From an uncultured Candidatus Saccharibacteria bacterium (GTDB taxonomy: Bacteria > Patescibacteriota > Minisyncoccia > 2-02-FULL-40-12 > GWA2-44-9), in assembly GCA_964513645.1 (NCBI GenBank), contig CAZENF010000001.1:266022-303837 (forward strand): DNA of 37,816 nucleotides. Reading direction: 5' to 3'. Numbering within the stretch: position 1 is the stretch's first letter; each line of letters opens with the position of its first letter. Of this stretch, positions 1 to 25,323 are shown piece after piece. The position numbers and the translations under genes were made by a program. The notes beneath the pieces are model-generated. The model was given only the letters and a program-made list of their open reading frames with translations. It had not been told where the DNA came from and did not search any database.

Positions 1-315
1 TAGTTCTCTTAAGAGAAATTCCAATTCCTGTTTTTCACCTTTGTCAGTATCTCTCAAGAGAGTAAGCCAAACCTTAGATTCGTTAGCTGATTTTAAGGCG
101 TGAGTAAAAAAATTAATAAAATCACGTTTAGAAGAAGCTGAATTAGCTTCTATATAGTTAGCTATTACGCTTGTTCCGCTTCTCAAGAGTTGTTTACCCA
201 TAATATCACAAGTTGATTCATTCGGCAGTTTATCAATAAACTTTATTAATCTAAGGACCCATTCATATAATCTTCTTTTAAATTCATTTTTAAATTTTAC
301 ACTGTCATTTTGCAT
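1..315 (-). CDS. Four helix bundle protein (TIGR02436/bAvd-like), 3' end runs off the window
   Basis: Not in the ORF track; translated by hand from ATG 315: MQNDSVKFKNEFKRRLYEWVLRLIKFIDKLP...GKQLLRSGTSVIANYIEANSASSKRDFINFFTHALKSANESKVWL. QLLRSGTSxxANYxEA and F...ALKSANE are family motifs. Confidence 0.9.
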   Translation of the reverse strand, partial: MQNDSVKFKNEFKRRLYEWVLRLIKFIDKLPNESTCDIMGKQLLRSGTSVIANYIEANSASSKRDFINFFTHALKSANESKVWLTLLRDTDKGEKQELEFLLREL

Positions 316-2661: not shown

Positions 2662-3618
2662 TTAATTAAGTCCAGAGTGATTAAATTTTGAGATGACCTC
2701 ACCAACACCCTTCTTGAGATTACCGACAGATTTAAAACCAAGTTTGCGGAACTTTGAATCGTCGACATCATAAGATAGCTGGTTCATAACCTCCGAATCG
2801 ACATAATTTACCGCCAACTTCGGTATGTAAGTTTTGATAGTTTTAACCACATCTTCAACTGTAAAATTATCCGTAACGACATTATAAATCTCGCCATCAA
2901 ATATATCTTTCTTTAGCACAAAATTAACCGCCCTTATACAATCGCCGAGATGAAGATATGGTCGCTTCTGCTTCCAAGCCGTCTTCCAAACGGTCAGAGG
3001 CATACCATTGACTGCTTGCCAACTAAATTTATTCACGGCCGTATCATAACGCATACCGATAGAGTGGCCGAAAATGGTGCCGAAACGGCAGATAACAAAT
3101 TTTAATCCTTGCGGCCCAAGTTTTTGAAGGTATTCTTCCGAACGAAGCTTGGCCCAAGCATAAGGACTTTGCGGTTTAAGTTCCTTACAGGTTTCATCAA
3201 CCCGTGTCGCCTGACTGCCATAAACACTGGTTGTGGAAGGAAAGAAAAGTTTAACGTTGTGTCTCAAACAAGCATCAGCCACCCTCATCAGACCAAAAAA
3301 GTTGGTCGCCTCAACTTGTTGAGGAATTTTATGACTTCCTTCGGCATCCGTAATCGCCGCGAGATGAATAACCGTTGAAATACCAGTATCTTTAAGATAT
3401 TTATCGAAATCAGCAGTGATTATATCGTCGTGAATAAAACGATATTTATATTTCTTTTTCGGCAGATCATAAAGAGACGGGAACCGACGAGCTTCTAAAC
3501 TGTCAAAAATTATCACCTCATCAAAAAGGCTTTCGTCTAAGTTACGAATAAGATGGGCACCGATGTGGCCTAAGGCACCGGTAATCAGTATTTTATTGTG
3601 TTTCTTTTTAGTCGGCAT
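2662..3618 (-). CDS. NAD-dependent sugar-nucleotide epimerase/dehydratase (extended SDR)
   Basis: ITGALGHIG, HLAA, STTSVYG, YAWAK (YxxxK). Confidence 0.92.
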   Translation of the reverse strand: MPTKKKHNKILITGALGHIGAHLIRNLDESLFDEVIIFDSLEARRFPSLYDLPKKKYKYRFIHDDIITADFDKYLKDTGISTVIHLAAITDAEGSHKIPQQVEATNFFGLMRVADACLRHNVKLFFPSTTSVYGSQATRVDETCKELKPQSPYAWAKLRSEEYLQKLGPQGLKFVICRFGTIFGHSIGMRYDTAVNKFSWQAVNGMPLTVWKTAWKQKRPYLHLGDCIRAVNFVLKKDIFDGEIYNVVTDNFTVEDVVKTIKTYIPKLAVNYVDSEVMNQLSYDVDDSKFRKLGFKSVGNLKKGVGEVISKFNHSGLN

Positions 3619-16924: not shown

Positions 16925-19900
16925 TTACAGCGACATCGATTGAGACTGGTTGATGGATTGTACAAGGTAATCACTCATCCAATCACCGGTGGTGGTTGAA
17001 TGTTGAACCTGTGAACCATCGGACCAAGTAATCGAAGCCGAACTGGTAGAGAGAGTGCCGGCAATAACCGAAGCAGAGTTCGAGTTGTTGCTTGAAGTCG
17101 TATTCGCGAGTTTAGTCACGATAGACTTCGGCGTTGAACCGGTAGCGACAACATTACCGACAAGTTCATAAACGTGGCCGGTTGAATCAATCGACTCTTC
17201 GTTTGTGAAAGTGAAGGCAACAGCTCCGGTTACACCGCCAGCATTCAGGTCAGCTGAAGCAGTGGCGAATGTACCCAATGAGGATATATCGACACCGTCT
17301 CTTAAGACTTTGAAGATAGCACTTGCGGCATCACCGTTATTACCCAATGTGGTGCTTGCGGTCTCGGTAACAGTCCAGTTAAGTTTGTAGACTCTGACTG
17401 TGTTCGAACCGGACGAAGCGATCTTCGCTTTGAACAACGACTGGTTGCCGGTGGCAAGCAGTGTTGCGGGCAAAGACACGTTGGTCACGACCGGGTAAGC
17501 GGCGACAACAACAATGTTGTTACCGGTATAGGTCGCGGTAGACAGACCGGTAGTTGTAGTCACGGTGCCTGAAGAATTGTGGTACTTCATACCGTCTAAC
17601 TGAACTTTGACCAAACCATCCGTGTCATTAGCACCTACGCCGACATTAGCCAGCTGTGCTTTGACCGTGAAGGTCTTGGTTCCGCCTGATTGTGGCAACG
17701 AGAAGTTCAAACCGGTGAACGACGCGGAACTGGTGCTCGAATTAAGAACAGCAGTGCGAAGCAAGTTGTTTGAACCGTCGTACAGCATCACATTGGCAAC
17801 TCCACCGACTGAAGAAGCAACCGTTGACGAAAGGTCAATGTAAACTTCATCCAAAGTGTAGTTGTCATAGGCCGGTTGCAAAGTGAAGGAGTAAGCCGTC
17901 ACTGTTGAACCACCATTGGCTAAGGTAGCTGACGGAATAGCACCATTAGCTGCGGTCAGGGAACCTGACTGGACAGTCTCTGTCTGGCCTGCAACTCCGT
18001 TTCCGTGGACAGTTGTGCTTGAACCGGTGGTTACACCATCGATATCAAGGTAAGTGTTTCCGTAATTGTTGTTGGAAAGGCCTGAAGCGACATCACCCCA
18101 AACTTCAACTTGGTATTGCTGGTTCTTCGGCAACACGAAGTTGACCGAGTAGCTGTTCGAAGCTGTACCAGAAATGGTTGATTTACCAGGTGAGGTATAG
18201 ATCAAGGAACCGGAATTGTTCCAGACCTTGACATACATGTTGGTTATGTTCGAAGCGGCAAAGCTCGAACCGTTGGTCCAACTAACATTCAAGCTGTTGA
18301 CGTTCAAATCTTCGGATGAAGACTGGGTTAAGGCGTAATGGCCAAGCTTGGTGTTATAGGTCGGTGTGATAACTGTCTGGTTGGCATAACCGCTGTACTT
18401 GGAAACGGTTACTGAACCGGTTCTGATGGTTAAACTGTTACCATCAATTGGACCCGCTGTACAACCAGCAACCGTACCATAAGCACAATCTATATAACCA
18501 AGAGAGGTTAACCTCTGAACGTTACTTGAACTGTTCTCGATACTGGCCATAAGTGTCTGGCCGGAAGCGATATCATTGACTCCATCGTTGTCGTAAACAT
18601 CACCTCTGATTTCCAATACACGCGGCGTAGCCGGGTCAACAATGAATGAAGAACCGAAGCTGTACTGCGTGTAGAAAGGAGAAGTATTATCTTCCTCCAA
18701 AAGGTCAGAAGTCGAACCGATCTGGACACCATCCAAGAAGATGGCACCGTTTCGGATTTTACCGACACTGCCTGACGATGAGTCGACGGCGAATCTCATT
18801 GATTCAACTTTCATCTTCTCACCATAAGCTTTGATGTCGTAGCGGGCTAAGACAACACCTGAAGCACCTTTGACAACATCACCTGAAGGAGAATCTGTTC
18901 TCTTGGTGATAACCAAAGTGCCTGAAGTGATTGACTGTTTGCCTGCGCTATCCGGGAATGAACCGGTTGTAACAGTAGTAAGGATATTTTGTCCGTACTG
19001 GCTGTCAACTGTCGAAACATCCGGAGCCTGACGTACCGACAAGGTGAAGTCTCGGCTTGAGCCATTAACGACATCAAGCAAAACCTTCACGGTGCGGGAG
19101 CCAGTCTGAAGCTGGATTCCACCGCCAAGGTCAAAGAATACATATCCGTTCACATCGGGCATCGAAACAGCCGAACCGACCTGGACTCCATCTACGAAGA
19201 GACGGAAGTTCTTAAGGTCACCCGACTGGACTGAACCGATAACACGGACTTGGAAGCTCTTCAACCAGATAAAGCGGGTACCGACAGTCAAAGTATCCTG
19301 CCATCCGACAACATCGGAACCAGGATTCAAGCTGGTATTAGCAGCCACCATAGGTGATGCCGGATTTGCCAAAGCAGCAGTGGCTAATGTCGCATTTGCA
19401 GCAGTGGATAAATTACCGGAAACACTGACCGCATTGCCATTAACACTCGCTAACTGGACACCAACTGTTTCACCAGTATTCGATGAAAGGTCAGCGCGCA
19501 CTGAAATGACCTTTGAACCCATGACCTGAAACAAACCCATCGAGCTCGTGTCATTAAAGCTGATCTGCCCGTTTGTAACTGTAGCAGCATCAGTTAGACG
19601 CTTGTTGCCGTCATACAGGTAGACATTCTTCAAATCAGTATCAGCCGAAACACCGAGACGGTTCAACACAAGGTTGTTAACCGTACCGTTTCCGCTGAAC
19701 ATGAAATGGGCCAAGTCTGCCGCAGCCTGCCCTTGGACAAAAGTACCTGAAGCCGGATTGTCGGAAGCTAAGCTAACCGTGAATGAACCGCCGGTCTGGG
19801 TGGTCTGGCTTCCTGAACGAGAGTAATTGGGAACCTGTTTGACTGACGAATAGTCAGCACCTTTGGCATACCAATTAAATTCGTTGTTGTTGATACAGAA

Positions 19901-20341
19901 AACTTTGCTGAAGAAGTTCGGGTCGTCAGAAACGGCTTGTGAACCGCTGGTATTTACCCAGTGGAGCGTACCCGTATCCTCGCCGGTAACTTCGACACCA
20001 TAGACCTTCTGGTCGTTGGTTTCACAATTCCGGAATAAACCGGAAGTCATGAATGCATCTCTTGTTGCTGGGGTAACACCATGAACTGCAGCAAATCCGC
20101 CAAGATGGCCATAAAAGCCGAAGATAGCAGGGTTCAAGAATAATCTCTTGTATCCCGCATCATTGACTATATAGACGTCCGGATCAGATGAGCCGGCAGC
20201 ACTGATGGTCCAGCCCTCTTTCAAACCGTAGTCTGAAGGAGCGACAGCCGCAGCTACGCTTGCTATCGAAAGCACAGTCGTAACGGCTGTAAGAACGGCC
20301 GCAGTTTTCACCAAGGCTGTTCCTTTGAATAATTTACTCAT
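16925..20341 (-). CDS. Large secreted S-layer-like/major surface protein (1138 aa)
   Basis: Signal peptide; Ser/Thr/Gly/Asn-rich; about six tandem beta domains (NVYLYDG, NFRLFVDG, NGAIFLDG, NMYVKV, NVMLYDG, FKVLRDG). Confidence 0.8.
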   Translation of the reverse strand: MSKLFKGTALVKTAAVLTAVTTVLSIASVAAAVAPSDYGLKEGWTISAAGSSDPDVYIVNDAGYKRLFLNPAIFGFYGHLGGFAAVHGVTPATRDAFMTSGLFRNCETNDQKVYGVEVTGEDTGTLHWVNTSGSQAVSDDPNFFSKVFCINNNEFNWYAKGADYSSVKQVPNYSRSGSQTTQTGGSFTVSLASDNPASGTFVQGQAAADLAHFMFSGNGTVNNLVLNRLGVSADTDLKNVYLYDGNKRLTDAATVTNGQISFNDTSSMGLFQVMGSKVISVRADLSSNTGETVGVQLASVNGNAVSVSGNLSTAANATLATAALANPASPMVAANTSLNPGSDVVGWQDTLTVGTRFIWLKSFQVRVIGSVQSGDLKNFRLFVDGVQVGSAVSMPDVNGYVFFDLGGGIQLQTGSRTVKVLLDVVNGSSRDFTLSVRQAPDVSTVDSQYGQNILTTVTTGSFPDSAGKQSITSGTLVITKRTDSPSGDVVKGASGVVLARYDIKAYGEKMKVESMRFAVDSSSGSVGKIRNGAIFLDGVQIGSTSDLLEEDNTSPFYTQYSFGSSFIVDPATPRVLEIRGDVYDNDGVNDIASGQTLMASIENSSSNVQRLTSLGYIDCAYGTVAGCTAGPIDGNSLTIRTGSVTVSKYSGYANQTVITPTYNTKLGHYALTQSSSEDLNVNSLNVSWTNGSSFAASNITNMYVKVWNNSGSLIYTSPGKSTISGTASNSYSVNFVLPKNQQYQVEVWGDVASGLSNNNYGNTYLDIDGVTTGSSTTVHGNGVAGQTETVQSGSLTAANGAIPSATLANGGSTVTAYSFTLQPAYDNYTLDEVYIDLSSTVASSVGGVANVMLYDGSNNLLRTAVLNSSTSSASFTGLNFSLPQSGGTKTFTVKAQLANVGVGANDTDGLVKVQLDGMKYHNSSGTVTTTTGLSTATYTGNNIVVVAAYPVVTNVSLPATLLATGNQSLFKAKIASSGSNTVRVYKLNWTVTETASTTLGNNGDAASAIFKVLRDGVDISSLGTFATASADLNAGGVTGAVAFTFTNEESIDSTGHVYELVGNVVATGSTPKSIVTKLANTTSSNNSNSASVIAGTLSTSSASITWSDGSQVQHSTTTGDWMSDYLVQSINQSQSMSL

Positions 20342-20850
20342 TTGTTTTTTTATTTAATTTCTGCCCTGAAATTGTTTTATCAATTACGGTATCGAGCCGA
20401 TTGATAATATCGCCATTTCCAGAACATAAATTTTACCAATTAAGATTTTTATAAATCGCTGACAATCTTTTGTAACTTGAATCTTGTATAAGCTGCGCCG
20501 CATTGAGCGTTCCGGTCCTAATAAATGTTTCGACCATAATAGGTCCGAAATAGCAGCTCATCGACACCAAGACTCGTTCAACCTAAATTCAATTTGAATC
20601 TGATAACTTTTTCTTACTAACTCAAAAACATCATTTTTTGAATTTCTGTATTTTTAATTTTCAACGTCCGTTCCTTAGCTATCAGCTTCTGAAAATTTAG
20701 TGACTTTCAGAAGTTGAGAGCCAAGACAGCAATAATGCAAAAAGACCAAAATCTGGCTTTTAACTTTGTCTGTATGACTTGAAATTCATGTTTTTCAAGC
20801 TATATCTCGAACAATCTTTGAAAAGCTGAATATATAAGGAAAATATAGCT
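20342..20850 (-). promoter_or_regulatory. Putative ~510-nt structured 5' leader
   Basis: No ORF of 60 aa or more; several stems (e.g. 20359-20424, 20674-20725); consensus promoter just upstream. Confidence 0.55.
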
Positions 20851-20855
20851 TAGTA

Positions 20856-20884
20856 ATGGTATGCTTTTTTGTTAAAAAAGTCAA
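20856..20884 (-). promoter_or_regulatory. Sigma70-type promoter for the surface protein gene
   Basis: TTGACT-N17-TACCAT. Confidence 0.6.
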
Positions 20885-21197
20885 CCAAACAAGTATATAT
20901 CAAGCCGAACATGGGGCTTGGGTTTCCCAATTAATCACACTCTTCTTTAGTAATTATAGTCCATTTGGCGAAGTCAACAATAGTAAAATGTGGATATCTG
21001 GGGGATTTTTAAAGACCCCGCCGACTGGCTATTTAGATCAACCTGGCCGATTCATATATCGGGCATTAAATACCTCCCAACTATCCCAGGCATGAGCTCG
21101 TTCTATGGACCATGTCTTTAACGAGACATATATCGGCTTAACATATCAATTTTAAGGTAGTGGGAATGGTGAATGAATTGAATCGATATAAAGTTAG

Positions 21198-21374
21198 TGT
21201 CACCTATTAAACAAAGTATCATTACATCCTGGTGAGATTAAAAAGGTAACTTAATTATATATTATGCTTTAAATAGTTTAGTGACGTCACCAAAGGATAT
21301 TAGTGACATTATTATTTTAGTGACAATCAAATGGTGTCACTAATTAAAGAACGCTGTCACCAAAATGTCACCTA
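21198..21374. repeat. Array of eight 9-bp YGTCACYWA boxes in both orientations
   Basis: Plus strand at 21198, 21285, 21335, 21355, 21366; minus strand at 21278, 21300, 21317. Confidence 0.85.
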
Positions 21375-21382
21375 AAACAAAA

Positions 21383-21482
21383 ATCCCTCTGATTTGCTGC
21401 GATATAAAATTCTTAAATTGAAGTATTAAAAATGGAGGGATAATTTTAATATTTCCGAATTACCGCAGCAAGTCAGAAGGAT
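21383..21482. repeat. 100-bp imperfect inverted repeat
   Basis: ATCCCTCTGATTTGCTGCG / CGCAGCAAGTCAGAAGGAT (17/19) plus inner AATTC/GAATT and TATTAAAA/TTTTAATA. Confidence 0.8.
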
Positions 21483-21492
21483 CTTAAGAAAA

Positions 21493-22095
21493 CTATTCAG
21501 AAGCATAGTAATATACGGCTTTGTTGTCAACTCTCTTTTTGACAAAGCCCTCCCGGAGAAGATCGGTTAAATTTCTCTTGACTGTTCTTCCGGACATGGA
21601 GCTGAATTCATAGACAATATCTTTTGTTCTTGTGTTGGGAAAAGACTTTATATAATCCAGGATTTTTTTCTTACTTTCGTTAAGTTTTACTGCCAGTTGA
21701 GGTTTATTTGCCTGTACGAAAATTTCTTTATTCGACTGTTTATTTTTCTTAACTCCGTCTTGAATTCTGGCCGATTTAAGGATGTCCAACTTGAGACTTA
21801 AAAGTTCAGCTTCAAGTCTAAGCAGAGAGGTATTTTTGAAAATATTAAGATACTCGAGCTCTTTGAAAATATCGAGGATCGCATCGATTGAAGCTGAGCA
21901 TTTCTGAATTGCTACCTGATGTTGCGTAGATATTTCGTTTCCTTCAGAGCAAAAAAATAGGATAAAATCCGAGATGAAATAATTCAGCTTCTCGTTGAAT
22001 TTGGCGTAAAAAAACTTATTCTGAACTTTACCGTTCGATTCCGCAAGACAGATGACGATGCGGCTGAAAAATTTGAGTCTGTCATCTTTTATCAT
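21493..22095 (-). CDS. Helical N-domain plus C-terminal winged-helix DNA-binding protein
   Basis: LNESKKKILDYIK...TKDIVYEFSSMSGRTVKRNLTDLLREGFVKKRVDNKAVYY (DeoR/ArsR-like wHTH pattern). Confidence 0.8.
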   Translation of the reverse strand: MIKDDRLKFFSRIVICLAESNGKVQNKFFYAKFNEKLNYFISDFILFFCSEGNEISTQHQVAIQKCSASIDAILDIFKELEYLNIFKNTSLLRLEAELLSLKLDILKSARIQDGVKKNKQSNKEIFVQANKPQLAVKLNESKKKILDYIKSFPNTRTKDIVYEFSSMSGRTVKRNLTDLLREGFVKKRVDNKAVYYYASE

Positions 22096-24039: not shown

Positions 24040-25323
24040 TTAATCTTCGGTCAAAGAGTTGTCTTTACAAATTTTAGCATATTCGTAGGCCGATGGGCGA
24101 ATGGTCCGCTTTAAAGTTGCCCGGTCAACTTCAACAAGGCCAAATTTAGGACCATATCCTTTAGCCCACTCGAAATTATCGAGAAGAGACCAATATAGAT
24201 ATCCGCGGACATCGACACCGTCTTTGACAGCATTAAATATCCATTTTAAATGTTCGCGGATATATTTTGTCCTTAATTCATCCGGTCCGGCCGTGCCATT
24301 CTCGGTTATATAAACCGGTTTTTTAAATTTTTTAAGTTTGTGGAGGACGTGATATATCCCTTGAGGATATATTTCCCAGCCCATATCATCCATCCACCAA
24401 TCCTGTTTAGGAACGGTTTTATAGCTTCCAGGTACCTTCCGATCCAAATGATAATAATTCAGACCCATAAAATCATAATAGGGGAAAGCTTCGGTCCAAA
24501 AATGTAAATTACGGTAATGGTCATATATCCCACCCCATAGTTTCTGCCAAAAGATATTTCCAGAAGGATTATAAGAAGCATTCTCAACCAAGCCCACTTC
24601 TACATTATGCGACATTATCCTTGGATCTGGGGAGGTACCCAGAGCTCCGGTATTTTTATTATTTAAATTAACAGGGGAGTCAGTGCCGATGTTTTTTATG
24701 GTTTTATATGCCGACACATGGGACCGGATGATGTTCCGGTTGGCTCTCCTCCATTCAATGAGACTCCTGTGTTGAGGTGGCCATTGTCCCTTAAGGTAAG
24801 ATGCACTTGAGTAGACAGTTGTTGCTTCATTAAAAGTTATCCACAGTTTTACCTCCGGCAAGTTATCCACAACATACTTTGCATATCGTGTAAAGTAATC
24901 CGGGCTATTAAGGTTTATAAAGCTTCCTTTTTTGGCGAACCAGACAGGGTTTGTGAAATGCCAGAGAGTTATCATTGGTTCAATTCCCCTGTCGCATAAT
25001 TCCTTGACAATTCTTTTATAATGTTGTATTGCTTGAGAATCGAACTTCCCCTCCTCAGGCTCGATCCGTGACCATTCAATGGAGAACCGGTGAACGTTCT
25101 GGTTGAGGAATTTCGCGATATCGAAATCTTCTCGGTAACGGTTATAACTGTCACAGGCCCGGCCAGAAATAAAATCAGCCGGGTCTTTGCCTTCATGCCT
25201 AAGCCCTTCGAGACGTATAGCCGATGACTCCCACTCGCTCCAATCATTCTGGTTATCCCCTTCTATCTGGTGAGCAGAGGTCGCACTGCCCCATTTAAAG
25301 TTTTCGGGAAATTTAAACTCCAT
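24040..25323 (-). CDS. Glycoside hydrolase family 1 (beta-glucosidase)
   Basis: WGSATSAHQIEG, RFSIEWSRI, TFNE, ITENG, WSLLDNFEW. Confidence 0.95.
   Translation of the reverse strand: MEFKFPENFKWGSATSAHQIEGDNQNDWSEWESSAIRLEGLRHEGKDPADFISGRACDSYNRYREDFDIAKFLNQNVHRFSIEWSRIEPEEGKFDSQAIQHYKRIVKELCDRGIEPMITLWHFTNPVWFAKKGSFINLNSPDYFTRYAKYVVDNLPEVKLWITFNEATTVYSSASYLKGQWPPQHRSLIEWRRANRNIIRSHVSAYKTIKNIGTDSPVNLNNKNTGALGTSPDPRIMSHNVEVGLVENASYNPSGNIFWQKLWGGIYDHYRNLHFWTEAFPYYDFMGLNYYHLDRKVPGSYKTVPKQDWWMDDMGWEIYPQGIYHVLHKLKKFKKPVYITENGTAGPDELRTKYIREHLKWIFNAVKDGVDVRGYLYWSLLDNFEWAKGYGPKFGLVEVDRATLKRTIRPSAYEYAKICKDNSLTED

Follow-up and report, generated by a model that had tools for sequence, protein, structure and literature searches.

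Introduction

Winged-helix regulators with operators are already known as a kind of system, and several described proteins stand close to the one reported here. In regulators of the BlaI/MecI type an N-terminal winged helix is followed by C-terminal dimerisation helices, and DeoR joins an N-terminal helix-turn-helix (HTH) to the sugar-phosphate-binding DeoRC domain. In Rok of Bacillus subtilis, a protein of about 190 amino acids (aa), a linker joins an N-terminal oligomerisation helix to a C-terminal winged helix; Rok recognises clustered short pentamer motifs and represses comK and genes of surface and secreted proteins. Coating of DNA sites by a protein has precedents in TubR on tubC, AspA on its site and ParB on parS. 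Here we describe a gene for a 200-aa protein with a winged helix (21493..22095, minus strand; the regulator gene) and the array of eight short boxes that follows it (21198-21374, boxes on both strands, core TGTCACY), a proposed box-binding protein and its candidate operator cluster. Both lie in a 37,816-bp stretch of the genome of an uncultured bacterium (G000:C1:266022-303837, where G000 is the genome and C1 and C2 are contigs of it), and this whole stretch is called the window below.

The genome has 936,729 bp in five contigs and a GC content of 42%. Those homologues of the regulator that bear organism names belong to Candidatus Taylorbacteria and Yanofskybacteria, ultra-small bacteria of the Parcubacteria type. 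The epibiotic, DNA-scavenging lifestyle is believed to depend centrally on surface and DNA-uptake functions. Most Parcubacteria and related bacteria have not been cultured, and in the literature seen, largely listings and abstracts, almost nothing was found on their gene control. The listings and abstracts from a full-text literature search held no description of the family, the motif or the regulon, and a term search of a 2024 perspective on Patescibacteria returned neither 'transcription factor' nor 'transcriptional regulat' nor 'regulon'. On balance we consider it probable that the protein is a lineage-specific transcription regulator of one Parcubacteria-type order, that the TGTCACY boxes are its operators and that it controls, perhaps by repression, a regulon of envelope and DNA-uptake genes. 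It seems to be the first circuit controlling cell-surface and DNA-uptake genes that can be recognised in this uncultured group.

Results

A preliminary description of the window, made from its letters alone, had reported eight YGTCACYWA boxes in 177 bp. All eight matches to this motif in the 37,816 bp indeed fall inside 21198-21374, five on the plus strand (21198, 21285, 21335, 21355 and 21366) and three on the minus strand (21278, 21300 and 21317), while shuffled windows held 1.32 matches on average and four at most, with none of 100 reaching eight. The overlapping inverted pair that forms the palindrome GTGACGTCAC (21281-21290) and the AT-rich tract (21251-21280, 90% A+T) are present as described, and the distance to the winged-helix gene, given as about 120 bp, measures 118 bp from the stop codon (21493-21495) to the end of the nearest box. 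The site at 20697-20705 (TTAGTGACT) that had been counted as a ninth, near-matching box does exist, solitary in the presumed leader of the surface-protein gene, and we give it no weight because it is a singleton with one mismatch. The window contains 50 copies of bare GTCAC, where 36 are expected.

Mapping the motif over the genome, a check suggested in the same description, gave 40 occurrences and two clusters only, the window array with its eight boxes and a group of four at C2:201317-201412. The shorter core TGTCACY has 109 matches in the genome, among them the same two clusters and one further pair, which sits in a small open reading frame (ORF) at C1:159814-159842, looks like chance and was rejected. 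The consensus from 71 boxes in nine loci is T-GTCAC-C/T-A, with T before the core in 65 of the 71, C (53) or T (15) after it and then A (52). The arrays have 4-14 boxes in both orientations, and the most frequent spacing between boxes of the same orientation is 12 bp. The first boxes mostly point away from the regulator gene; read from that gene, the seven window boxes that cluster run >>><<><.

The comparison covered 61 related genomes, among them members of families f1 (36), f2 (8), f3 (8) and f4 (8). The regulator gene has a single match in its own genome, and orthologues, one copy each, were found in 43 of the 61 genomes (f1 30/36, f2 0/8, f3 7/8, f4 5/8). At 12 of 19 orthologue loci the 900 bp past the stop codon hold at least five GTCAC or GTGAC, and the 700 bp upstream never hold more than two. 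A count blind to the motif, in which any non-trivial 7-mer had to occur at least five times within 250 bp, gave enrichment downstream at 22 of 37 loci and upstream at none of 34, so the expectation that homologues would have adjacent arrays held at this level. Four of the negative loci have their array 2.1-3.4 kb off, behind inserted genes. Pairs of TGTCACC within 30 bp are present in 33 of 36 genomes of f1, 0 of 8 of f2, 1 of 8 of f3 and 3 of 8 of f4, a control with the reversed pattern was almost empty, and a genome typically has two or three array loci.

The strongest evidence that the protein reads the boxes is that the two change together, also at a locus unlinked to the regulator gene. 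The recognition helix is SGRTVKRNL (aa 168-176; 21568-21594, minus strand), and in the main f1 group, where it reads S[DEG]RTVKRNL, the array that follows the regulator gene is made of TGTCACC. In the arrays at the same position in other genomes the helix SKRTLIRYI goes with TGGCACC (G054), SPRTVKRSL also with TGGCACC (G029), NRRSVRRYL with TGTCCGCC / TGTCCGTC (G041), SRRTLKRKL with TGTCAT (G050), SRRTIQRKI with TTTGTCA / ATGTCGC (G047), SKRTVRRHL with TTGTCAY (G051) and SRRTVQRAV with GGTGTCAC (G021 and G035). G007 and G029 belong to one genus, and both helix and box differ between them. Upstream of a dksA-like gene and comM, at the unlinked locus, the same switch of box was seen in three of the four testable genomes (G029, G050 and G047): G029 has at least 15 TGGCAC boxes there, G050 has TGTCAT(CAT) boxes and G047 has a mix of TGTCAC, TGTCGC and ATGACA that matches the array adjacent to its regulator gene. 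No comM was found in G054. The covariation of motif and recognition helix that the preliminary description had put forward as a check was thus observed, and at two loci.

In G000 this second array lies on C2, ahead of a zf-dksA_traR gene and a gene for a ComM/Mg-chelatase-like protein. Of 20 loci, 19 have a ComM homologue next to an array and 16 have a DksA-like gene there. The boxes hold fixed positions around and inside the core promoter: in a reading of the loci, 9 of 21 have one box that abuts the word ATCCACA and a second between the -35 and -10 elements, as in the predicted promoter of G000 on C2 (TTGACC-ggTGTCACCaatcttag-TATACT). A site between -35 and -10 is the classic position of a repressor, and its occurrence here argues for repression. 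About 170 nt separate the promoter covered by the array from the start of the dksA-like gene (G000:C2:201433-201599; about 2934-3099 in locus L043), and this stretch opens with a motif shared by the relatives (…AGATCYTT…GCTGG…). It could be a conserved leader or a small RNA; a search of the C2 locus with Rfam gave no match at E<=0.1.

The structure of the regulator was modelled with AlphaFold2 on 40 homologues, with a mean predicted local distance difference test (pLDDT) of 88.2. An N-terminal four-helix bundle (aa 3-119; 21739..22089, minus strand; helices 3-22, 27-50, 57-82 and 88-119) is joined by a low-confidence linker (aa 120-139; 21679..21738, minus strand) to a C-terminal winged HTH (aa 140-198; 21502..21678, minus strand). 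The pLDDT ranges from 49 to 58 across aa 111-130, with aa 119-126 under 50, and in the homologues the linker varies in length and sequence and gives a gappy, unconserved alignment. The winged helix is composed of helices 140-151, 157-163 and 169-182 and strands 185-190 and 193-198, and R170, V172, K173, R174 and L176 are invariant across the 40 sequences. It superposes on MecI (1okr_A; Z score 11.9, root-mean-square deviation (rmsd) 1.4 A, 67 aa) and, with Z of about 10, also on MarR and ArsR members; Foldseek matched MecI, BlaI, ArsR and MarR at E of about 0.02. Sequence matches of the window protein are weak and confined to the winged helix, namely HTH_24 (E 0.016) and PF03965 (Penicillinase_R; E 0.03), the latter with 15.1 bits lying under the cut-off of 22.6 for that family. 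Weak matches to HTH_DeoR occur in 27 of the 40 family members (best E 1.4e-4), with none at E<=1 for the window protein itself, and the Atlas clusters of the family have been named automatically as 'putative HTH deoR-type'. Among 1.84 billion representatives the family comprises 526 clusters at E<=1e-3 (239 at 1e-10, 120 at 1e-30), and nearly all members have 180-230 aa; the few homologues with a source name are labelled 'hypothetical protein' and most are unlabelled.

The N-terminal bundle is a predicted dimerisation domain. When four copies of aa 1-120 were modelled together the ipSAE values were 0.64, 0.60 and 0.64 against 0.01 for the best control, the runs agreed in 100% of contacts and the partner pLDDT was at least 80. 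The predicted self-interface is two-fold symmetric and uses helices 1 and 2 (aa 7-22 and 34-49). In the calibration of this mark, which was made with two copies, 20 of the 30 proteins whose solved structure is a pair attained it, as did 1 of the 23 whose solved structure is a single chain.

The best fold matches of the bundle were 4dwl_A (Z 13.8, rmsd 1.9, 104 aa), which is Avd of the Bordetella phage retroelement, 2rld_A (13.1), 8ub7_B (12.9) and 2gsc_A (12.1), of which 2rld_A and 2gsc_A are proteins of the 23S_rRNA_IVP family. Helical bundles can reach Z of about 13 by chance, and the same list includes de novo bundles and talin with Z of 12.1-12.4. The link to Avd and PF05635 is weakened by the sequence profiles, as hhalign of the family alignment against eight PF05635 proteins from relatives gave a probability of 0.2% and an E of 0.3. 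PF05635 genes occur in 45 of the 61 related genomes, in 1-7 copies, and never at the regulator locus. A diversity-generating retroelement was rejected, since the genome, which is 100% complete, has no RVT_1 match and there is no profile similarity. The window does carry a gene for a PF05635 (23S_rRNA_IVP) four-helix-bundle protein at 1-273 (minus strand), which runs off the window start (G000:C1:265998-266294; E 2.7e-18).

The proposed target next to the array is a gene for a surface protein of 1138 aa (16925..20341, minus strand). The protein is rich in Ser, Thr, Gly and Val, has an N-terminal hydrophobic segment and matched no family in Pfam or NCBIfam. Homologues of its N-terminal part (aa 37 to about aa 430-520, less in two loci) follow the regulator gene in all 17 of the larger loci and in 11 of another 15, which belong to three families. 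Conservation among relatives is limited to about the first 420-520 residues, and the rest of the protein varies. The gene has 46-50% GC compared with about 42% for the genome, and its nearest Atlas clusters are unnamed proteins from other candidate phyla. Between array and gene lies a promoter-like module, P1 (20953..20996, minus strand), which consists of TATCCACA (20989-20996), a -35 element TTGTTG (20975-20980), a 16-nt spacer and a -10 element TATAAT (20953-20958). The layout is conserved as ATCCACA, N8-9, the -35 element, N16-17 and TATAAT, on the strand of the regulator and downstream of it; in a tally of listed loci it was present downstream on the same strand at 23 of 37 distinct loci and upstream at 0 of 37. 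The composite ATCCACA-N6-11-TTG...-TAnnnT occurs five times in the genome, both array loci included, and the reversed control gave none. A third promoter of the ATCCACA type (C2:193246) precedes a 134-aa ORF that belongs to no family, and was uninformative. The DnaA-box-like word (T)TATCCACA stands 8-9 nt upstream of the -35 at both array loci (20989-20996 and C2:201389-201396) and recurs at orthologous loci in three families, with no clustering near dnaA. In G038 three words of the (T)TATCCACA type in a row take the place of the usual array.

A further promoter-like site, P2 (20856..20884, minus strand; TTGACT, 17 nt, TACCAT), was found by consensus scan only, and 'TTGACTTTT' sites like it are present in relatives. 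The region has 10 promoter-consensus sites against 6.7 +/- 3.1 in shuffles, which is not above chance. The presumed untranslated leader of about 500-600 nt (20342..20952, minus strand) holds no ORF of at least 50 aa on its strand and would be transcribed, and Rfam gave only sub-threshold rows (E 1.4-9.7) over 20300-21520.

In many relatives a gene for a lamin-tail domain (LTD) protein of 310-330 aa lies between, and the array is then inside the DNA that codes for the Ser/Pro/Thr linker of the LTD protein, in three frames and both orientations. In G034 the array is likewise within coding DNA, that of a ComEA-like (HHH_3) protein. The occurrence of the arrays in every reading frame and in either orientation means that the DNA motif is conserved, and not a peptide. 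A decayed LTD gene in the 1.15-kb spacer of the window was rejected (tblastn with five LTD proteins, best E 0.96 in 20201-21600), and tblastn found no LTD gene or remnant in the G000 genome at E<=1e-3.

A long stem-loop of 106 nt (21380..21485, minus strand) lies between the regulator gene and the array. Its folding free energy is -37.9 kcal/mol (z -6.65), 0 of 200 shuffles were as stable, the apical loop carries CCCUCC (21434-21439) and a U-run follows the stem-loop. Over ten relatives the outer stem shows changes on both sides at 6 of 10 pairs. The RNAalifold consensus of the inner hairpin contained no pairs, as the MAFFT rows were shifted, and the sequences were therefore folded singly; 10 of 10 orthologous 54-nt inner windows then had CCCUCC in the apical loop although their stems differ. 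It is the sole AU-stem hairpin of its kind among 183 CCCTCC sites in the genome and matched no Rfam family. The stem-loop, whose loop is conserved, is probably the terminator of the regulator gene or another element at its 3' end. That the CCCUCC loop serves the surface gene as an anti-Shine-Dalgarno was rejected, because no GGAGG precedes the ATG.

Several loci carry insertions. In L033/L034 (G018, G033) and L037 (G038) an ORF of 222-223 aa on the opposite strand is inserted between the regulator gene and the array, flanked by near-identical GC-rich hairpins such as TTACCGACTT-cgc-AAGTCGGTAA, and it resembles a hairpin-bounded mobile element. Similar hairpins are carried by G039 and G042, where the repeated words CTGACAC and GGTCAGA proved to be hairpins flanking an inserted ORF and were rejected as arrays. 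The TGGCGCA repeats of G057 are 3 kb away, probably in coding DNA, and were left out of the counts. In locus L002 (G003), about 400-500 nt past the regulator stop, the array and the promoter module are separated by a perfect palindrome about 100 nt long; the window lacks it, and it may be a small insertion.

The other neighbours in the window are envelope and sugar genes, that is, genes for GH1 (24040-25323), an EamA-type transporter, a glycosidase, FKBP, DUF5671, a DsbA-like protein and an SH3_3 protein. Two perfect TTATCCACA words lie 26 bp apart in the GH1 coding region (about 24837-24872, plus strand). A search for tRNA and tmRNA genes found none, and in the Rfam search of the window no family reached its gathering score.

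Discussion

It is likely that the regulator binds the boxes, as the arrays accompany its gene in the relatives and the box follows the recognition helix. Control of the transcription of the surface and LTD genes and of the dksA-like/comM genes is also probable, though less so. That the regulator would act as a repressor we suggest tentatively, as a possibility that falls somewhat short of probable. The four-helix bundle would pair two subunits, in each of which a flexible linker of about 20 residues would tether the winged helix, and with such tethered winged helices single asymmetric boxes at irregular spacing and orientation would suffice. Two 7-bp boxes could then be bound by one dimer, whatever their orientation and with variable distances between them, and several dimers could coat an array of 6-14 boxes. 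At the dksA-like/comM promoter a coated array would block RNA polymerase, and the array next to the regulator gene may act on the neighbouring surface or LTD gene by control from upstream or as a roadblock. A small conserved regulon of envelope and DNA-uptake-related genes would in this way be kept down. As with a transcription factor, the sites lie at the promoters of a set of genes and change with the DNA-reading residues; exceptions are the comM locus of G041, the genome G034 and the arrays away from promoters.

A number of observations weigh against this proposal. At 15 of the 37 loci no 7-mer was enriched within 1.2 kb, no clear array was found, for example, for G038, G044, G056, G059, G039 and G057, and several f3 and f4 genomes with the regulator gene have no clear array. 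In the other direction, G034, a member of f1 that is 100% complete by markers and assembled in 50 contigs, has arrays and no detectable regulator: there are 13 matches to the TGTCACC pair at two loci, at a ComEA-like gene and at dksA-like/comM, and a family-profile search did not find the regulator in G034, G011, G012, G020 or G014. Because the array that adjoins the regulator is missing from G034 too, the locus may be unassembled. G041 has an array beside its regulator gene and none at comM, and the changes of helix and box could both track lineage, as the lineages compared are few and related. Some arrays of the relatives lie inside ORFs, others between the 3' ends of convergent comM and M23/LysM peptidase genes (L056, L059) or beside a UPF0102 gene, none of them promoter positions. 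P1 and P2 are promoters predicted from consensus and conservation only, and the dimer was predicted with four copies, a different number from that of its calibration. The array had been described as lying upstream of the surface-protein promoter, and it does precede the conserved module, at a distance of 250-430 bp from P1 that the description overlooked and that is far for a simple operator.

The preliminary description had inferred a protein-array system for partition, origin control or surface-gene regulation. The system itself gained from the 22 of 37 against 0 of 34 loci, from the box that tracks the helix and from the second, unlinked locus, which had been overlooked there together with the conserved hairpin and the arrays in the coding DNA of the relatives. 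Among the functions, surface-gene regulation fared best, as across the order the array precedes a conserved promoter-like module and the gene of a giant surface protein.

Partition belongs to a broader alternative, in which the arrays would be centromere-like or chromosome-organising sites that the protein coats for segregation or domain organisation and not for transcription. Such sites likewise pair a DNA-binding gene with a cluster of short repeats in mixed orientation, only two or three arrays occur per genome, some of them inside ORFs or between convergent genes, and TubR (4asn_A, Z 9.8) and AspA (5k5q) are among the many winged-helix fold matches. These two matches are, however, not distinct from the generic ones, and no gene for an NTPase or motor adjoins the regulator in any locus examined. 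The one ParA-like gene of the genome (C2:23557-24084) stands beside ParB at C2:22.9-24.1 kb, which fits the earlier remark that no ParA or Rep is visible in the window, although not every window ORF was searched against families. Judged by GC skew and the location of dnaA, the array is distant from both origin and terminus, and at comM the boxes are fixed around and inside the core promoter. We therefore regard this alternative as improbable.

The array could also act mainly where the transcription unit of the regulator ends, as a roadblock or insulator that would prevent read-through into the very strongly expressed surface-protein unit or would shield it, with promoter control secondary. The position of the array is in accord with this, as it is always past the 3' end of the gene and directly after the terminator-like hairpin, in relatives it falls in the first 100-300 nt of the next ORF (LTD/ComEA-like) or between convergent genes, and in the window it keeps its 250-430 bp from P1. 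The dksA-like/comM array, which lies beside the core promoter and reaches into it, is left unexplained by an insulator of this kind, itself a variant of DNA-bound regulation and no separate system. As an alternative it seems unlikely, to much the same degree as the centromere-like function.

Another factor might bind the boxes, the winged-helix gene being just a conserved neighbour of the surface-gene cluster. The synteny of the block (glycosidase, EamA-type transporter, regulator, surface protein) is strong and adjacency could be inherited with it, and the arrays of G034 stand without a detectable regulator gene. Inherited adjacency does not account for the box variant that tracks the recognition helix within one genus and at an unlinked locus; moreover, no other DNA-binding gene is common to both array loci, and the f2 genomes are without both the protein (0/8) and the box pairs (0/8). 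We consider a different binding factor quite unlikely. An iteron-type origin, or the remnant of an integrated plasmid or phage replicon, is scarcely credible despite the short repeats clustered beside an AT-rich tract and the DnaA-box-like TATCCACA about 200 bp away, since GC skew is below zero to either side of the array and throughout the window, the skew switches at about 150-161 kb of another contig, C2, where dnaA lies (C2:160965-161447), and at about 50 kb of C1, neither Rep nor reverse transcriptase was found, the locus is chromosomal and syntenic across an order, and TTATCCACA-like boxes do not cluster near dnaA or the array.

We thus return to a transcription regulator with its operators. 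In a wider form of this proposal the protein, a dimer with an Avd-like bundle, would be the master switch of a DNA-uptake and surface programme across the whole order, with arrays also in the linker-coding DNA of LTD and ComEA-like genes and with a specificity that was re-coded several times, all arrays in step. This extension is doubtful; if true, it would give the first defined regulon of uncultured Parcubacteria and a natural series of orthogonal protein-operator pairs. Already in the narrower form, sequence alone links an unnamed protein family to one DNA word and to a few conserved candidate targets: a giant surface protein, surface proteins of the LTD and ComEA-like kinds, and the operon that includes comM. 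Cultivation of the organism is not required for testing the prediction, and the natural variants of box and helix provide built-in controls of specificity. Operator arrays embedded in coding DNA would be unusual in their own right.

Among the systems named at the outset, BlaI/MecI as well as MarR/ArsR share with the regulator a winged helix combined with a helical dimerisation part, and repression by occupancy of a promoter as proposed here. The order of domains is reversed compared with BlaI/MecI, as the winged helix comes last, and a long flexible linker separates the two domains. In place of the one or two dyads of the BlaI/MecI type there are 6-14 single, asymmetric and irregular boxes, and the Penicillinase_R score given above falls below the threshold of that family. 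The motif S-x-R-T-V-K-R-N-L-x-E-L of the regulator resembles the helix of DeoR (PF08220), whereas its HTH is C-terminal and its bundle of about 117 aa has no DeoRC match.

Avd and PF05635 proteins, the best fold matches of the N-terminal domain, score near the chance level for bundles. Avd forms a pentamer, unlike the two-fold dimer that is predicted for the bundle of the regulator. TubR-tubC, ParR-parC and AspA are similar in that a small DNA-binding gene lies beside a cluster of short repeats; they differ from the present locus, which has no adjacent motor gene, a conserved chromosomal setting and a second array on a core promoter.

Rok agrees with the regulator in size, in layout and in the kind of target proposed. 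It was not among the fold matches listed, and no comparison was aimed at it. While Rok acts genome-wide on AT-rich foreign DNA, the regulator appears to have two or three arrays per genome and a box that contains GC. Compared with these known systems, what appears to be new is the family itself, the layout of a bundle with a tethered winged helix, the arrays of many single boxes that lie partly in coding DNA, the repeated re-coding of helix and box, and the first candidate regulon.

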